This document shows, in pieces, positions 3,001 to 53,280 of a DNA stretch of 64,000 nucleotides. The stretch is from assembly GCF_041886205.1 (NCBI RefSeq), contig NZ_CP169029.1; one strand, 5' to 3'. Below the pieces are notes generated by a model. That model had not been told where the DNA came from. It did not search any database and worked only from the letters and a program-made list of their open reading frames with translations. Position 1 is the stretch's first letter, and each line of letters begins with the position of its first letter. The position numbers and the translations under genes were made by a program. This DNA is from Escherichia coli. GTDB lineage: Bacteria; Pseudomonadota; Gammaproteobacteria; Enterobacterales; Enterobacteriaceae.

Positions 3001-4578
3001 GTGACGGCAACGCTGGACAATAACAGTAGTAGTAAGGTTGACGTGAATGTGGCAAATGGCAAACTCGAGTTAACATCATCGAAGCCAGAAACCACGGTCC
3101 ATAACAGTGAGGGTATTACGCTTACCGCAACGGCGAGAAATGCGCGGGATGAATTGATGCCTGGGCAAATTATCACCTTTAGCGTAACGCCTGAAGGTGC
3201 AACGCTAAGCAATACAGGGGAAGTCCTTACTGACCAGTCTGGTCAGGCCAAAGTGACGCTGACCAGTGACAAAGTGAATGTCTATACCGTTACGGCCACA
3301 ATGGGCAAAGATGTTCCCGTTCAGAGCCAGGTAACGGTTGCGGTTAAGGCAGATGCTAAAACGGCACATGTTGTAAGCGTCGTGGCCTCTCCTGACACCA
3401 TAACCGCCGACGGCGTTGATAGCAGCACCGTCACGTCACGAGTAGAAGATGATTACGGATTCCCGGTTGAAGGTGTCGATGTTAGTTATGCCTTAGACAC
3501 CAAAGGTCGCCCGGTTGTTAATATTCCAACTACGCGTACCGATCAATCCGGGCAAGTCACGGCGACAATAACCAGTACATTGGCAGAAACCTTAACAGTC
3601 AATGTGCAAGTTCCTGGTACAGCCAACCAATCCGCAGCTATTACCTTGATTGCCGGCACGGCGGATGAAAGTAAGTCAATTTTGAAATCCGACGTTGGCA
3701 CTCTGATGGCTGACTACCAGCATAGCGCGAAACTTACGCTAACATTGCAAGACAAGTACGGTAACCCGATAGTGACGTCTGATCATCTGGAATTTGTCCA
3801 GTCAGGTCCCTTCGTGAACTTTCTCAAGTTGAGCGATATTGATTACAGCCAAAGAAATTATGGCGAGTACACCGTGACTGTCACTGGCGGAAAAGAGGGA
3901 ACAGCGACTCTCATTCCCATGCTGAACGGGGTTCATCAGGCAAACTTAAGCGTATCGCTGAATCTCATCCGCTCGATAAAAGAAATGTCCGGTCATGTCA
4001 CTGCAAACAACCATACCTTCTCCACGGCTAAATTCCCGAGCGAAGGTTTTGCAGGAGCGTATTACACACTCAACAATGATAACTTTGAAGCGGGTAAAAC
4101 CGTTGATGATTATATGTTTTCAAGTTCACAGAGTTGGGTGTCTGTCGATGCGTCAGGTAAGGTTTCTTTCACAAATATCGGCGATCAAACGTCAGTCACA
4201 ATAAGCGCTGTTCCCCGACAAGGAGGTACAACCTACCAGACCTTAATTAAGCTGAAAGGCTGGTGGGTGAATAATGGAAATCAAACCAATATCTGGCTAA
4301 CTGCCAATGCGCTCTGTCATGCGAAAAATGATGGATATACTCTTCCTGGCATCACACATTTGACGTCTGGCGAAAACAAACGCACGCAGGGATCGCTATA
4401 TGGTGAATGGGGGAACGTTGCAGCGTTTTCCAGTAATTCGCCATTTACACCAGGTGCTTACTGGACAAATGAATCTGATGATTACAATAGGCACTACTAT
4501 GTGCAGATGCTAACGGGTATGACCGGAAGCGACGCTGATTCCAGCCCCCAACTGACCGCCTGCCGTAAATCACTTTAA
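1..4578 (+). CDS. Inverse autotransporter adhesin (intimin/invasin family), 5-prime partial: end of beta-barrel, about 9-10 Big_1 Ig-like repeats, Cys-containing C-terminal domain
   Basis: Frame is open from base 1 (no stop before the listed TTG at 58). N-terminal stretch AEYWRDYLK...ERPANGWDLR...KLVYEQYYGDEVALF resembles the intimin/invasin barrel end; recurring about 100-aa units with motifs such as STLTATVTD..NPL..V.F; stop at 4576-4578. Confidence 0.8.
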   Translation, partial: LFSQHTLHRTDDRTQINTGLGWRHFTPSWMSGINLFFDHDLSRYHSRAGLGAEYWRDYLKLSSNAYIGLTGWRSAPELDNDFEARPANGWDLRAEGWLPAWPQLGGKLVYEQYYGDEVALFDKNDRQSNPHAITAGLNYTPFPLLTLSAEQRQGKQGENDTRFAVDLTWQPSSSMQKQLNPDEVAGRRSLVGSRYDLIDRNNNIVLEYRKKELIRLSLLDPVKGKSGEIKPLVSSLQTKYALKGYNIEAAALEAAGGKVSTSGKDITVTLPGYRFTNTPETDNTWSIDVTAEDVKGNLSHHEQSMVVIQAPTLSQKDSLLSVNPLTVAADKKSTTTLTVTAHDSDGTPVPGLALQTRSEGVQDITLSDWTDNGDGSYTQMLTAGTTSGSVTLTPQINGESAVKESIVVNIVPVVSSRDHSSITIDNVSYYAGDDIKVRVELKDDSNQPVAYQKEELVKAVTVENSKPGATIVWHEELPGVYTANYPAHKQGTALRAQLSLHNWNAPLQSHIYNIEANQNKARVATLSATNNDVYADKKTFNTLTINVTDESDNPLTNHQVTFKNEKGSAEFVEPPQQNTDAYGVATINMVSQVAEENTISATLPNGFSQRIIAKFVSDSSTPKFKQLVADPDTIIAGNSQGSTLTATVTDFHNNPLKDMKVNFVAPGGSQLDNTTATTDQYGIVRVHLTSSKAGSYSVDASLEADKNIHQSVTITVVPNREQSVMTLNAGSGSAVANNTNTVTLTASVKDVYGHPLPDEDVKFTLPASMTGNFTLSSETARTDANGDAMVTLRGTKAGEFTVTATLTRNNTIAHQQVSFIGDTNSAQLQPLTASLNTIVAGNSTGSTLTATILDAYQNPLKDQLVTFQSNDVTLSGTEVTTNTLGQATVTMTSNIAGQHNVVVSRKAQASDNKTFSLSVLPDESSAKVISITGAEKTITVGENITLRILVQDAFNNVIAGQRVRLSAQPTAHITIGDTAYTDNNGYAYVHLISTQSGVYQVTATLDNNSSSKVDVNVANGKLELTSSKPETTVHNSEGITLTATARNARDELMPGQIITFSVTPEGATLSNTGEVLTDQSGQAKVTLTSDKVNVYTVTATMGKDVPVQSQVTVAVKADAKTAHVVSVVASPDTITADGVDSSTVTSRVEDDYGFPVEGVDVSYALDTKGRPVVNIPTTRTDQSGQVTATITSTLAETLTVNVQVPGTANQSAAITLIAGTADESKSILKSDVGTLMADYQHSAKLTLTLQDKYGNPIVTSDHLEFVQSGPFVNFLKLSDIDYSQRNYGEYTVTVTGGKEGTATLIPMLNGVHQANLSVSLNLIRSIKEMSGHVTANNHTFSTAKFPSEGFAGAYYTLNNDNFEAGKTVDDYMFSSSQSWVSVDASGKVSFTNIGDQTSVTISAVPRQGGTTYQTLIKLKGWWVNNGNQTNIWLTANALCHAKNDGYTLPGITHLTSGENKRTQGSLYGEWGNVAAFSSNSPFTPGAYWTNESDDYNRHYYVQMLTGMTGSDADSSPQLTACRKSL

Positions 4579-4649
4579 TTTCTGCAGTTGTTATTAAAGG
4601 ATACCCTTGTGCGAGGGTATCCTTTCCGACTGATAACAAACGCTACATT

Positions 4650-4708
4650 GCCTAATGCGCTGCGCTTATCTGGCCTATATAATCCCTGCAATATATTGAA
4701 TTTATTGT
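4650..4708. repeat. REP-like palindromic element with conserved extension (second copy at about 40085-40142)
   Basis: gcgctgcgcttatctggcctat...cctgcaatatattgaatttattg closely matches gcgctacgcttatcaggcctac...cctgcaatttattgaatttgttg downstream of ridA. Confidence 0.6.
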
Positions 4709-5286
4709 TTTTGTGGCCCAGCCGACATGAACGGCCACTCAAGAAACTCAACAGCAACCGTTGATGTCAGCCAGACCCCGTTTTCCGCTTGCCAGAAAGG
4801 GATGCCTCGTTTCGCCATTTCCTGTGCTTTGACGGTTAAGATAACCGGCGATCCGTGTCTTGCTCCCACTTTGCGTGCCGTTGCTTCATCAGCAGAGAGA
4901 TGTACGTAATGACGCTCCCCTGCAATCAGCCCCTGTTTTTTTATCTCGTCAAGGAAACGGCTTGCCGTACCGTGGTAGAGAAACTGTGGCGGTGTTTTTT
5001 CGGCAAAGGAAATGGCGACCTGCGAAGTCGAATGCCCCTGAACCGCGCGGATGCACCTACCATCACTGGAATAACTAAAACGCTTTTTATCGCTGGTGGC
5101 AACCACAGTATCCAGCAATGCACGGGTTAACCGCTTGCCCGCTTTTTGGGCACAGAGTATAAGCTTATCGATATCCGCCCATCCTTCACGGTCAAGTACG
5201 ATACCAATCGCCTCCGGTTTGTGTCGGAGGACAAAACTTAAAAACTTGCTCGTATCCGCCAGCTCTTTTTCGTTGTACTTTGCCAT
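4702..5286 (-). CDS. kptA: RNA 2'-phosphotransferase KptA (Tpt1 family)
   Basis: Translation [28 protein letters not shown]...[16 protein letters not shown] matches the KptA/Tpt1 family; start chosen at internal Met of the 228-aa ORF. Confidence 0.85.
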
Positions 5287-5523
5287 CTCGTTTTCGTCCC
5301 TGGATTTTCTGTTTTTATTTACTGATGTCATTGTCACTTGGTTTATGAATTTTCTGCAACTCAATCCTGCGCAGAGCCTTTTCCACACAGCGTAATTTTT
5401 CCGCTATGCAAAAAACGCATAGCCAGAAACATACTTGCATTTTCCCCATACCCACATGGCTGATAAGGTTTTTCCGCTCCAGGAATTTTCCTGGCTCAAG
5501 CAACACACAAACACAAAAAAACA

Positions 5524-11639: not shown

Positions 11640-11674
11640 GGTGTTGTGTCCGTTAGGTGCGGTTAATCAAATTT

Positions 11675-11708
11675 TGCCGGATGCGGCGTGAACGCCTTAT
11701 CCGGCCTA
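11675..11708. repeat. REP (repetitive extragenic palindromic) element
   Basis: gccggatgcggcgtgaacgccttatccggcctac, the canonical E. coli REP sequence, between uxuR and uxuB. Confidence 0.8.
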
Positions 11709-11852
11709 CAACGGGCAATTTTACGGCCCCCGTTAATCTCAAACTATACCATTAGCACTGGAAGTTGGCACGTACAGGTGGGCAAAAAAACGAAAACTGG
11801 TCAACCAAATATCAGTTTGATTGACCAGTAAGTCTGTAGGGTAATCAGTTAG

Positions 11853-17846: not shown

Positions 17847-17992
17847 AGAGAATGTCCTTATACGTTCTCAGAACAAGCAGCAAAAAAACAAATGAGATCA
17901 AAGTAATATATCTTCACTTGCAGGCTTGAACAGCAGAAAATTTGCGAGCATGATCGCAATTATTTCACTGCCAGGGAGGTAATGACTCCAAC

Positions 17993-18496
17993 TTATTGAT
18001 AGTGTTTTATGTTCAGATAATGCCCGATGACTTTGTCATGCAGCTCCACCGATTTTGAGAACGACAGCGACTTCCGTCCCAGCCGTGCCAGGTGCTGTCT
18101 CAGATTCAGGTTATGCCGCTCAATTCGCTGCGTATATCGCTTGCTGATTACGTGCAGCTTTCCCTTCAGGCGGGATTCATACAGCGGCCAGCCATCCGTC
18201 ATCCATATCACCACGTCAAAGGGTGACAGCAGGCTCATAAGACGCCCCAGCGTCGCCATAGTGCGTTCACCGAATACGTGCGCAACAACCGTCTTCCGGA
18301 GCCTGTCATACGCGTAAAACAGCCAGCGCTGGCGCGATTTAGCCCCGACATAGCCCCACTGTTCGTCCATTTCCGCGCAGACGATGACGTCACTGCCCGG
18401 CTGTATGCGCGAGGTTACCGACTGCGGCCTGAGTTTTTTAAATGGCGGAAAATCGTGTTGAGGCCAACGCCCATAATGCGGGCGGTTGCCCGGCAT
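17993..18496 (-). CDS. insB: IS1 transposase InsB reading frame (expressed as InsAB' by -1 frameshift)
   Basis: 167-aa [19 protein letters not shown]...DGWPLYE... overlapping the insA 3-prime end in the -1 frame, as in IS1. Confidence 0.9.
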
Positions 18497-18690
18497 CCAA
18501 CGCCATTCATGGCCATATCAATGATTTTCTGGTGCGTACCGGGTTGAGAAGCGGTGTAAGTGAACTGCAGTTGCCATGTTTTACGGCAGTGAGAGCAGAG
18601 ATAGCGCTGATGTCCGGCGGTGCTTTTGCCGTTACGCACCACCCCGTCAGTAGCTGAACAGGAGGGACAGCTGATAGAAACAGAAGCCAC
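18415..18690 (-). CDS. insA: IS1 protein InsA
   Basis: 91-aa [46 protein letters not shown]..., the IS1 InsA zinc-finger protein. Confidence 0.95.
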
Positions 18691-18745
18691 TGGAGCACCT
18701 CAAAAACACCATCATACACTAAATCAGTAAGTTGGCAGCATCACC

Positions 18746-19281: not shown

Positions 19282-19366
19282 TGGTGCCGAAGGCCGGACT
19301 CGAACCGGCACGTATTTCTACGGTTGATTTTGAATCAACTGCGTCTACCGATTTCGCCACTTCGGC
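19282..19366 (-). tRNA. leuX: tRNA-Leu (CAA), leuX
   Basis: Reverse complement reads GCCGAAGTGGCGAAATCGGTAGACGCAGTTGATTCAAAATCAACCGTAGAAATACGTGCCGGTTCGAGTCCGGCCTTCGGCACCA with CAA anticodon loop and encoded CCA end. Confidence 0.95.
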
Positions 19367-22213: not shown

Positions 22214-22373
22214 GTCAGGCGCGATTTGTCTTTGCCTGATGCGACGCTGGCGCGTCTTATCATGCCTACACCACTGCAACATATTGGATTTTCATGATTT
22301 TTCAGGCATGAACGAAGCACACTTTGCTAACAATAATAAAGGGAGCTTTAGCTCCCTTTATTCGTTCATCAGG

Positions 22374-24819: not shown

Positions 24820-26334
<1,515 letters not shown>

Positions 26335-26348
26335 TTGCGTCAGGCAAG

Positions 26349-26540
<192 letters not shown>

Positions 26541-26591
26541 CTGCGGTGTATACCTGATGCGTATTTAAATCCACCACAAGAAGCCCCATTT

Positions 26592-29910: not shown

Positions 29911-29939
29911 AAGGCCGGAGCATGCTCCGGCCTTTTTTA
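29911..29939. terminator. Bidirectional rho-independent terminator between valS and yjgN
   Basis: aaggccggagcatgctccggcctt perfect hairpin followed by tttttt, preceded by A-rich stretch. Confidence 0.8.
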
Positions 29940-29943
29940 TCTC

Positions 29944-31140
29944 TTACAGAAATGGTAAAGAAGGCATAACTCCCCGTGAAATACTGGCTAATAAGCCTTT
30001 ATCTGGTTGTTCTTCTTTATTGATTAAAGGAAGGTCATCCAAATCGCCCAGCAAATACGTATTTTTTGCCTGCCAGTCAATCATCCATATTTTCAGCAGT
30101 GGATAAGCCAGACCGCCCGTAATCCCGGATATCACTACCAACGCACACATGCGATAAAGCATACCGTGGTAAGTTAAAGTTGAGCGAAAACGAATACGCC
30201 CATCATTCAGTGACAGGTTGCTCATAAAATGATTTCGCAACGACACCGTTAAATAACTGGTGCTAACAGCAATCCCAAAATAATAGATTAACTGCGCGAT
30301 TATCATTTTACGTTGCACTTCCATAAATTGCTGTAAATTCTCAATATCATCATTTGCATACACAGAACTATAATACTCATTTAATATTTGATCGAAGATA
30401 ATATAACCAGCAACAGCGAGAAAAGGTAATAAAGCTAAAAATGCGAGGATGGCATATTTTATACAATACGCAGTATCTAATTTCACCTTGAAACGATGTA
30501 TACCGAAACTGGTATTGCTCCAGAGAAAACTCATTACCAGGCTATATAAAGTACCATTAAAAATACCAATGGAAACAATACCAACTATTGCCATCAGAAC
30601 CACAGATATAATAACACTACTTGAACTATTGGCATGTAGCATCTTTGTCGAGATAAAGAAAACAGTCCCCATCCCAATGGCCATTAAAATCGGCAAGAAA
30701 AAGGTTACCCACCAGAACCCTTTCATAGAGCAATTAAAACTAAATCTTACGCCGTTGAGACTGGTCATCAAGGCCTGATAACGCAGTCCTTTTGCTGCCA
30801 TAAATATAAGCAAAACCAACAGTGACAAAGTCAAAACACAGCCAACAAGCGGCATATCTGCTGACACTGTCATTAAGATTGCGAAATAGAAAAAAACAAA
30901 AACAAGACAACTAACAAAAACATTCCCACCAGTAATTCCATAAGAAAATCGTTGTCCGTTAACTTCCATATTAGCATAGAGATAACGCTTACATTTCATT
31001 AATGCCCATGGTAAATAGATACCTAGCGTTATAATCGTCAACAACACATTCACCACACAAATAAGAAAATATCTCTCACCTGTACCATGAAAAACAAACG
31101 AATGGGACGGAACATCCATTTCATTAATAACTTGAGCCAT
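29944..31140 (-). CDS. yjgN: Inner membrane protein YjgN (DUF898 family), low-GC gene
   Basis: About 398-aa polytopic membrane ORF with AT-rich codon usage; position between valS and yjgM as in K-12. Confidence 0.75.
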   Translation of the reverse strand: MAQVINEMDVPSHSFVFHGTGERYFLICVVNVLLTIITLGIYLPWALMKCKRYLYANMEVNGQRFSYGITGGNVFVSCLVFVFFYFAILMTVSADMPLVGCVLTLSLLVLLIFMAAKGLRYQALMTSLNGVRFSFNCSMKGFWWVTFFLPILMAIGMGTVFFISTKMLHANSSSSVIISVVLMAIVGIVSIGIFNGTLYSLVMSFLWSNTSFGIHRFKVKLDTAYCIKYAILAFLALLPFLAVAGYIIFDQILNEYYSSVYANDDIENLQQFMEVQRKMIIAQLIYYFGIAVSTSYLTVSLRNHFMSNLSLNDGRIRFRSTLTYHGMLYRMCALVVISGITGGLAYPLLKIWMIDWQAKNTYLLGDLDDLPLINKEEQPDKGLLASISRGVMPSLPFL

Positions 31141-31332
31141 AAAAATTCCCTGAATTAAAAAATCCATTGATATAATTTATAGATACAGACAGTAAAATGT
31201 TCTGCCACGTTACAATACTCTTATCAGTAATAGGCTGGCAAAAACTTTATTACTTTATAAGTCGCTTGCGCACGTAAGAAGAGAGTGGTATTAAACATAT
31301 GTATAATTACTTTATTTTTATTGGGTTAAACT

Positions 31333-31836
31333 ATGAATAACATTGCGCCGCAATCATCTGTAATGCGTCGCCTGACGTTGCAGGATAATCCTGCTATCGC
31401 CCGCGTCATTCGTCAGGTATCCGCCGAATACGGTCTTACCGCTGATAAAGGCTACACCGTCGCCGATCCGAACCTTGACGAGTTGTATCAAGTGTATAGT
31501 CAGCCTGGCCATGCATATTGGGTGGTTGAGTTCGATGGTGAAGTGGTCGGCGGCGGTGGGATTGCGCCATTAGCAGGTAGTGAATCGGACATTTGCGAAC
31601 TGCAAAAGATGTATTTTCTTCCGGCTATTCGCGGTAAAGGGCTGGCGAAAAAACTGGCCTTAATGGCGATGGAGCAGGCACGAGAGATGGGCTTCAAACG
31701 CTGCTATCTGGAAACGACCGCTTTTTTAAAGGAAGCCATTGCGCTTTATGAGCATTTGGGCTTTGAGCATATCGACTATGCGCTTGGCTGCACGGGCCAT
31801 GTCGATTGTGAAGTGCGGATGCTACGCGAACTCTAA
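31333..31836 (+). CDS. yjgM: GNAT-family N-acetyltransferase YjgM
   Basis: 167 aa; acetyl-CoA binding motif region ([21 protein letters not shown]). Confidence 0.8.
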
Positions 31837-50031: not shown

Positions 50032-50053
50032 TCTTCACTCTGCGCTAAGCAAA

Positions 50054-50140
<87 letters not shown>

Positions 50141-50188
50141 TGATTACCGGATGCATCCTATACGCGGACTGATAAGCCAGGCGAAACA

Positions 50189-53159: not shown

Positions 53160-53280
53160 GTTTGCCGGATGCGGTGCACCTGTAGGCCTGATAAGACGCA
53201 TCAAGCGTCGCATCAGGCACTATGCTCAAATGCCGGATGCGGCGTGAACGCCTTATCCGGCCTACGCACACTATATCAGG
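53160..53280. repeat. REP elements (BIME) between yjgA and mpl
   Basis: tgccggatgcggtgcacctgtaggcctgataagacgcatcaagcgtcgcatcaggc ... gccggatgcggcgtgaacgccttatccggcctac. Confidence 0.8.

Follow-up and report, generated by a model that had tools for sequence, protein, structure and literature searches.

Gene setting of the repeat copies

We analysed a 64-kb stretch of Escherichia coli DNA (here called the window), in which a REP palindrome with a conserved tail occurs at two sites, A and B, and a third, degenerate element of the same kind occurs at site C. Site A located between the stop codon of iatD (+, 4576–4578), encoding an inverse autotransporter adhesin, and kptA (−, 4702–5286), just past the iatD stop. 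Site B located just past ridA (+, end 40026) in the 205-bp spacer between ridA and mgtA (−), and site C between yjgR (+, end 22213) and lptG (−, end 22374). The adhesin gene and ridA had already been named in the initial annotation as the upstream neighbours of sites A and B, and this was borne out. As the copies are flanked by iatD/kptA, yjgR/lptG and ridA/mgtA, all three lie between convergent 3′ ends. Terminator scans revealed nothing at the site A or site B elements, and the sole match was inside the kptA coding sequence. The parts of each copy are listed in Table 1.

Table 1. Parts of the repeat copies and other REP arrays in the window. HMM positions refer to the 151-nt model described in the text; REP types and the L linker are named after the published BIME scheme.
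Feature	Position	Strand	Sequence	Basis or remark
Site A, left flank	4628..4649	+	GACTGATAACAAACGCTACATT	17/22 identical to site B; HMM positions 4-25
Site A, decayed Z1-type REP	4650..4678	+	GCCTAATGCGCTGCGCTTATCTGGCCTAT	Two adjacent stem pairs broken
Site A, L linker remnant	4679..4714	+	core TGCAATATATTGAATTT	Left half with core intact; right half diverged or deleted
Site A, IHF-consensus-like site	4689..4701	-	ATTCAATATATTG	1 mismatch
Site A, last 10 kptA codons and TAA stop, from the BIME-1 remnant	4702..4734	-		K-12 homology ends after codon W184, window 4735
Site A, Y REP remnant (right arm only) and first right-flank bases	4715..4734	-	GGCCCAGCCGACATGAACGG (on + strand)	Alignment to consensus and strain WL297
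Site C, third degenerate L-containing element	22234..22334	+		HMM positions 23-99, E 8e-11
Site B, left flank motif	40062..40084	+	AGTCTGATGACAAACGCAAAATC	HMM positions 3-25; motif precedes the REP in most of 23 E. albertii copies
Site B, Z1-type REP	40085..40113	+	GCCTGATGCGCTACGCTTATCAGGCCTAC	Sequence; hairpin in DNA fold
Site B, L linker, 28 nt	40114..40141	+	TGCAATATATTGAATTTGCACGATTTTGT	10-nt deletion in right half vs consensus (10-column gap in nhmmer alignment)
Site B, IHF-consensus-like site	40124..40136	-	ATTCAATAAATTG	1 mismatch to WATCAANNNNTTR
Site B, Y-type REP, inverted	40142..40173	-	GGCCGGATAAGGCATTTACGCCGCATCCGGCA (on + strand)	Sequence, HMM alignment, hairpin in DNA fold
Site B, right flank, small palindrome	40174..40199	+	TGAACAAAGCTTACTTTGTCTGCAAT	HMM positions ~125-150; small hairpin in fold; motif in most E. 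albertii copies
Other REP array	11670-11717			HMM alignment
Other REP array, BIME-2/naRNA4 type	26349-26543			HMM alignment
Other REP array	50035-50141			HMM alignment
Other REP array, BIME-2/naRNA4 type	53171-53268			HMM alignment
Other REP array, BIME-2/naRNA4 type	59419-59510			HMM alignment

Resemblance between sites A and B

The initial annotation had pointed out a REP palindrome and a tail shared by the two sites, and we confirmed this pair at 4650–4708 and 40085–40143. Over the full 59-nt span the two sites were identical in 49/59 positions. In the alignment the REP parts (4650–4679 and 40085–40114) shared 25 of 30 bases, and the tails, CCTGCAATATATTGAATTTATTG at 4685–4707 and CCTGCAATTTATTGAATTTGTTG at 40120–40142, shared 21 of 23. 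Pairwise alignment showed that the likeness reaches about 22 nt further to the left (4628–4649 vs 40063–40084, 17/22 identical, beginning with GACTGATAACAAACGC and GTCTGATGACAAACGC, respectively), and that beyond the element sites A and B have unrelated flanks. When up to 3 mismatches were allowed, the tail pattern CCTGCAATNTATTGAATTT had three matches in the window vs 0.17 expected: two exact ones, at 4685 and 40120, and one with 3 mismatches at 22273–22291. None of 100 shuffles gave three matches.

Genome-wide repetition and consensus architecture

The extension beyond the REP is not restricted to the two sites. In a search of one genome per species (298 Gb), the core TGCAATNTATTGAATTT had 23 exact copies in E. 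albertii NBRC 107761 among the matches listed, and elsewhere among them it was found as singletons in unrelated, mostly AT-rich genomes, as chance predicts for 16 specified bases. For a genome of ~4.7 Mb a simple 4^16 calculation gives ~0.002 expected copies of this 16-base core vs the 23 found. Within E. coli, the 37-mer of site B itself was found in 5425 of 5426 complete genomes, with a median of at least 8 places in each. The 47-nt linker consensus, likewise found in 5425 of 5426, had a median of at least 31, and 1735 records showed at least 40 pieces. These counts are from BLAST and are lower bounds, since the 28-Gb database limits the E-value and at most 40 pieces are counted per record. 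The genome-wide repetition of the extension, which the initial annotation had put forward as the point to check, thus amounts to tens of copies per genome in both E. coli and E. albertii.

When the 23 E. albertii copies were aligned, one architecture was found throughout. From left to right the consensus is composed of a left flank CTGATGACAAACGCAAAA, a 29-nt REP GCCTGATGCGCTACGCTTATCAGGCCTAC, about 8 variable bases, TGCAATATATTGAATTTGCACGATTTTGT, an inverted REP AGGCCGGATAAGGCGTTCACGCCGCATCCGGCA and a right flank TGAACAAAGCGCACTTTGTCAGCAA, and a 151-nt HMM was built from 21 of these copies. A REP was located 8–10 nt left of the core in 23/23 exact-core copies. By a substitution-only pattern search it was of the Z1 type in 21/23, and the two copies missing this match had a REP with an indel and a Y-like REP, respectively. 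On the right side, an inverted Y REP was found in 21/23.

In 286 kb of sampled DNA, every Z-to-Y pair 20–60 nt apart had an L-type spacer, including nine copies that were not chosen by the exact core; the linker length was 34–35 nt in 21 of the 22 sampled pairs and 25 nt in the remaining one. The linker core TGCAATnTATTGAATTT is present at sites A and B. Since the linker joins two inverted REPs in the sampled pairs, the tail is the left half of a linker and not the flank of a single REP. The proposal of a composite REP family in the initial annotation therefore stands as far as a REP plus a conserved non-REP part repeated through the genome is concerned, but its description of that part as an extension of one REP does not. 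The other REP arrays of the window (Table 1) aligned to the HMM except for a gap that falls exactly on the L core.

The BIME-1 copies in the window are single, non-tandem units. In E. albertii NBRC 107761 we also observed whole BIME-1-like units, with Z1, L, Y and flank, in tandem at two loci, L010 (6956–7531, 3.9 x 147 bp) and L027 (1220–1945, 4.1 x 177 bp).

Assignment to BIME-1 and the putative IHF site

BIME-1 is a repeat of ~140–150 bp scattered through the intergenic regions of E. coli; it was reportedly named RIB by Boccard and Prentki in 1993 and RIP by Oppenheim et al. in the same year. The composite family has thus been known for about thirty years, since the early 1990s, and is not a find of this analysis. 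In the published scheme three REP types (y, z1 and z2) are distinguished: BIME-1 combines z1 and y with a long, well-conserved L linker and a frequent IHF site and occurs in single copies; BIME-2 is composed of tandem y and z2 with short linkers; and a cleavage site, cut between TGCC and TGAT, is found in z1 and z2 but is absent from y (PMC3333891). By this rule on the cleavage site (PMC3333891), the REP noted in the initial annotation is Z1 and its partner is Y. BIME-1 was also described as ~140 bp long, with loci present or absent among isolates (PMC1187871).

We are highly confident that sites A and B are BIME-1 copies, composed of a left flank, a Z1 REP, an L linker of ~35 nt, an inverted Y REP and a right flank. 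The likeness covers the inverted Z1 and Y REPs, the long conserved linker with an IHF consensus, the length of ~140 bp and the non-tandem arrangement, as well as the location at 3′ ends of transcription units, the tens of copies per genome and the polymorphism among strains. We found no printed L sequence in the literature for a letter-by-letter comparison, and the naming is therefore based on the IHF consensus together with the architecture, the length and the copy behaviour of the element.

The sequence between the REPs of BIME-1 interacts with IHF (PMC2817692), and BIMEs form IHF sites (PMC3184786); the IHF ChIP-seq paper (PMC3333857) does not discuss REPs. On the minus strand of sites A and B we found ATTCAATA(T/A)ATTG, with 1 mismatch from WATCAANNNNTTR, a consensus so short that chance matches are common. 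Judged from its sequence, the AT-rich core of the tail (reverse complement AAATTCAATATATTGCA) is the putative IHF recognition sequence of the BIME-1 family. According to the literature, IHF would bind to L and bend it between the REPs, whose hairpins, formed in transcripts or in DNA, may protect mRNA 3′ ends, attenuate transcription or affect local DNA topology. The family may have spread and been reshaped through single-strand cleavage and joining by a REP-associated tyrosine transposase whose gene lies elsewhere in the genome.

Also in the window are the BIME-2/naRNA4 (REP325-type) arrays marked in Table 1, which are close to BIME-1 in that their Y REP is the same and their Z REP is related. 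These arrays differ from BIME-1 in their short linkers without the L core, their tandem arrangement and their Z2 REP, and the literature ties such arrays to gyrase and HU/naRNA, not to IHF. Matches to naRNA4 (RF02564, REP325-type) above the gathering score were found on the minus strand at 26409–26484, 53185–53262 and 59425–59503; they sit in short-linker REP arrays of BIME-2 type, such as the one between pepA and holC. Another, strong Rfam match, to Ysr276 (Yersinia sRNA 276, antisense type), was found at 25381–25575 (−) with 174.7 bits; it falls within the coding region of pepA, in antisense orientation.

Site B, a complete copy

The whole element at site B (40062–40199) matched the HMM over positions 3–150 with an E-value of 3e-39. 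Its REP was typed as Z1 because it contains the TGCC-TGAT cleavage site and is without the centre, 7 nt longer, that is seen in the other arrays of the window. The tail noted in the initial annotation, at 40120–40142, is included in the span of the L linker, which is 10 nt shorter than in the BIME-1 consensus. The Y REP also gave a sub-threshold naRNA4/REP match (40142–40178, 34.3 bits). The DNA fold of 40062–40199 showed the two expected REP hairpins with a z-score of −3.56, and no shuffle folded as well.

The ridA–mgtA spacer of K-12, at about 4,470,350–4,470,490 of NC_000913.3, carries the same element with few base differences, and query coverage of at least 80% was found for site B in 4676 of 5426 E. 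coli genomes. Site B is a complete, intact BIME-1, ordinary and conserved in most E. coli, and the copy is probably functional. No repeat feature is annotated at the ridA–mgtA spacer in the RefSeq record of K-12; the GenBank record of K-12 presumably labels such elements as RIP, with two REP sequences and one IHF site.

Site A, a relic at the border of kptA

At site A, 4628–4718 matched the HMM over positions 4–95 with an E-value of 2.5e-19, and the linker remnant contains the tail at 4685–4707. The element no longer has the right half of L or the left Y REP arm, and little of its right flank is left. The DNA fold of 4628–4734 was no better than that of shuffled sequences (z +0.67; 146 of 200 shuffles folded as well). 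As it stands, the site thus departs from BIME-1 in several respects, being without a Y REP and without a fold. With neither the Y REP nor the Z1 stem preserved, and overlapping the end of a coding sequence, it differs from BIME-1 as a relic does; site A is a decayed BIME-1 in which the Z1 stem is broken and the Y REP deleted. Full-length BIME-1 is kept at this locus in strain WL297. The same deleted form as in the window was found in O157:H7, where iatD and kptA are both annotated as frameshifted.

The BIME-1 remnant extends 33 nt into kptA, and the tail overlaps the TAA stop of this gene (4702–4704, −), which adjoins the IHF-like core. KptA has 194 aa in the window, 190 aa in WL297 (ending in …VEFLECPKKRAD) and 184 aa in K-12 (ending in …VEFLEW). 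In the window the homology of kptA to K-12 stops exactly after codon W184, at 4735, where the variable segment with iatD has its border. Of 5426 E. coli genomes, 624 had the arrangement iatD–BIME–kptA, and the rest were homologous to the window from position 4735 onwards. The one evident present role of site A is to supply the last 10 codons and the stop of kptA.

Window region 4300–5300 was 100% identical to strain ET201. Over its whole length the window is not colinear with that strain: an IS1-like segment (17978–18745) is found where ET201 has IS3 and type I restriction-modification DNA over ~10 kb, and ~1.4 kb around 29937–31384 had no megablast match to ET201.

Site C and ordinary features of the window

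Site C comprises a Z2-type REP (22234–22269), an L-like linker (22270–22303) whose core has 2 mismatches, and a right flank (22309–22334); its Y REP is almost wholly deleted. With Z2 instead of Z1 it differs from BIME-1 and would be an atypical BIME in the published scheme. The spacer is length-polymorphic, with coverage of at least 80% in 3609 of 5426 E. coli genomes and a shorter spacer in others.

Two ordinary annotated features were also found in the window: the magnesium riboswitch upstream of mgtA (43022–43137, −), and a tRNA match (19285–19366, −) at a position corresponding to tRNA-Leu in ET201.

Alternative readings of the repeat

The reading that survives best beside BIME-1 takes the ~150-bp unit as a non-autonomous element of MITE type with terminal inverted repeats, which would be moved whole by a REP-associated tyrosine transposase, the linker being kept for transposition and not for IHF. 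At its ends the consensus shows partial inverted repeats (GTGATGACAAACGC vs GCTGACAAAGTGCGC, sharing an inverted TGnTGACAAA), copies are present or absent among strains (also PMC1187871), and E. albertii has tandem amplifications of whole units. TnpA-REP cleaves single strands of REPs and BIMEs in vitro, between C and T at sites in the REP and the linker, and rejoins them, which was proposed as the route of BIME diversification (PMC3333891). The REPtron, that is, rayT/tnpA-REP flanked by REPs, has the same REP sequences and is proposed in the literature as the source of BIME mobility; the initial annotation, too, had considered a REP-associated transposase as the possible agent.

However, rayT was absent from the 64-kb window (the best tblastn match of K-12 RayT had an E-value of 0.045 at 24% identity), and at the K-12 rayT locus REPs were present but no L core was found; these are the differences from the REPtron. 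The literature that we found also shows no in-vivo transposition of BIME-1. The inverted ends and the tandem units of E. albertii fit a unit-wise behaviour but prove nothing. We regard the MITE reading as possible but rather unlikely; it does not truly compete with the BIME-1 explanation, with which it is compatible. A wider form of the idea is that the complete ~150-bp BIME-1, flanks included, is one MITE-like unit that is gained, lost, tandemly amplified and eroded, and whose relics may be absorbed into genes, as in the last 10 codons and the stop of kptA in ~11% of E. coli genomes; this is a speculation to which we give rather little credit.

The tail could also be read as part of a small-RNA gene on the minus strand, ES036/CssrF (RF02751), acting as RNA and not as protein-binding DNA. 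In reverse complement, the RF02751 consensus AAAuUUGUGCAAAUUCAAUAAAUUGCAGGAaAU.ACGUAGGCCU is indeed the L linker together with the CTAC that ends the Z1 REP, the linker scored above the gathering score exactly at the core in 8 of 17 E. albertii loci scanned (L008, L011, L013, L017, L019, L022, L024 and L025), and CssrF was seen as a Northern band of ~290 nt from the dacB/yhbZ spacer of Shigella flexneri (PMC3071730). At a permissive threshold both sites of the window were weak minus-strand matches, 40106–40142 with 23.1 bits and 4671–4711 with 20.4 bits, well under the gathering score of 37.6; they fall below it because the right arm of the small TGCAA/TTGCA hairpin is deleted in the window copies. 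The ~290-nt band is far longer than L, and what a 43-nt model describes, when it matches a repeat found tens of times per genome, is that repeat and not one gene. The promoter scan was negative at site A, and the sole promoter-like site at site B (−, 40074–40047, 9/12 matches) is on the downstream side of L, as read on that strand, and cannot drive it. The small-RNA reading is thus very improbable, and RF02751 in effect models the BIME-1 linker, dispersed with tens of copies per genome, and not a single sRNA gene.

Sites A and B could, finally, be a private duplication of recent date, or alike by chance, and not belong to any dispersed family, for which one could cite that just two exact copies of the pattern occur in the 64-kb window. 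This reading is refuted by the E. albertii copies and the genome-wide counts in E. coli and is next to impossible, with the unrelated flanks outside the element and the shuffles, none of which reached the observed pattern count, also standing against it.

Significance

Beyond correct annotation, the identification of BIME-1 at these sites matters little. Recognising its L linker avoids calling the tail a new REP subfamily, and equally avoids calling it an sRNA gene, the ES036/CssrF model being essentially the linker on the other strand. At site A the breakpoint between the iatD-type and the K-12-type arrangements coincides exactly with a decayed BIME-1, by which the C-terminus of KptA is redefined. 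Site A is thus a small example of repeats that mark the borders of variable segments and donate coding sequence.
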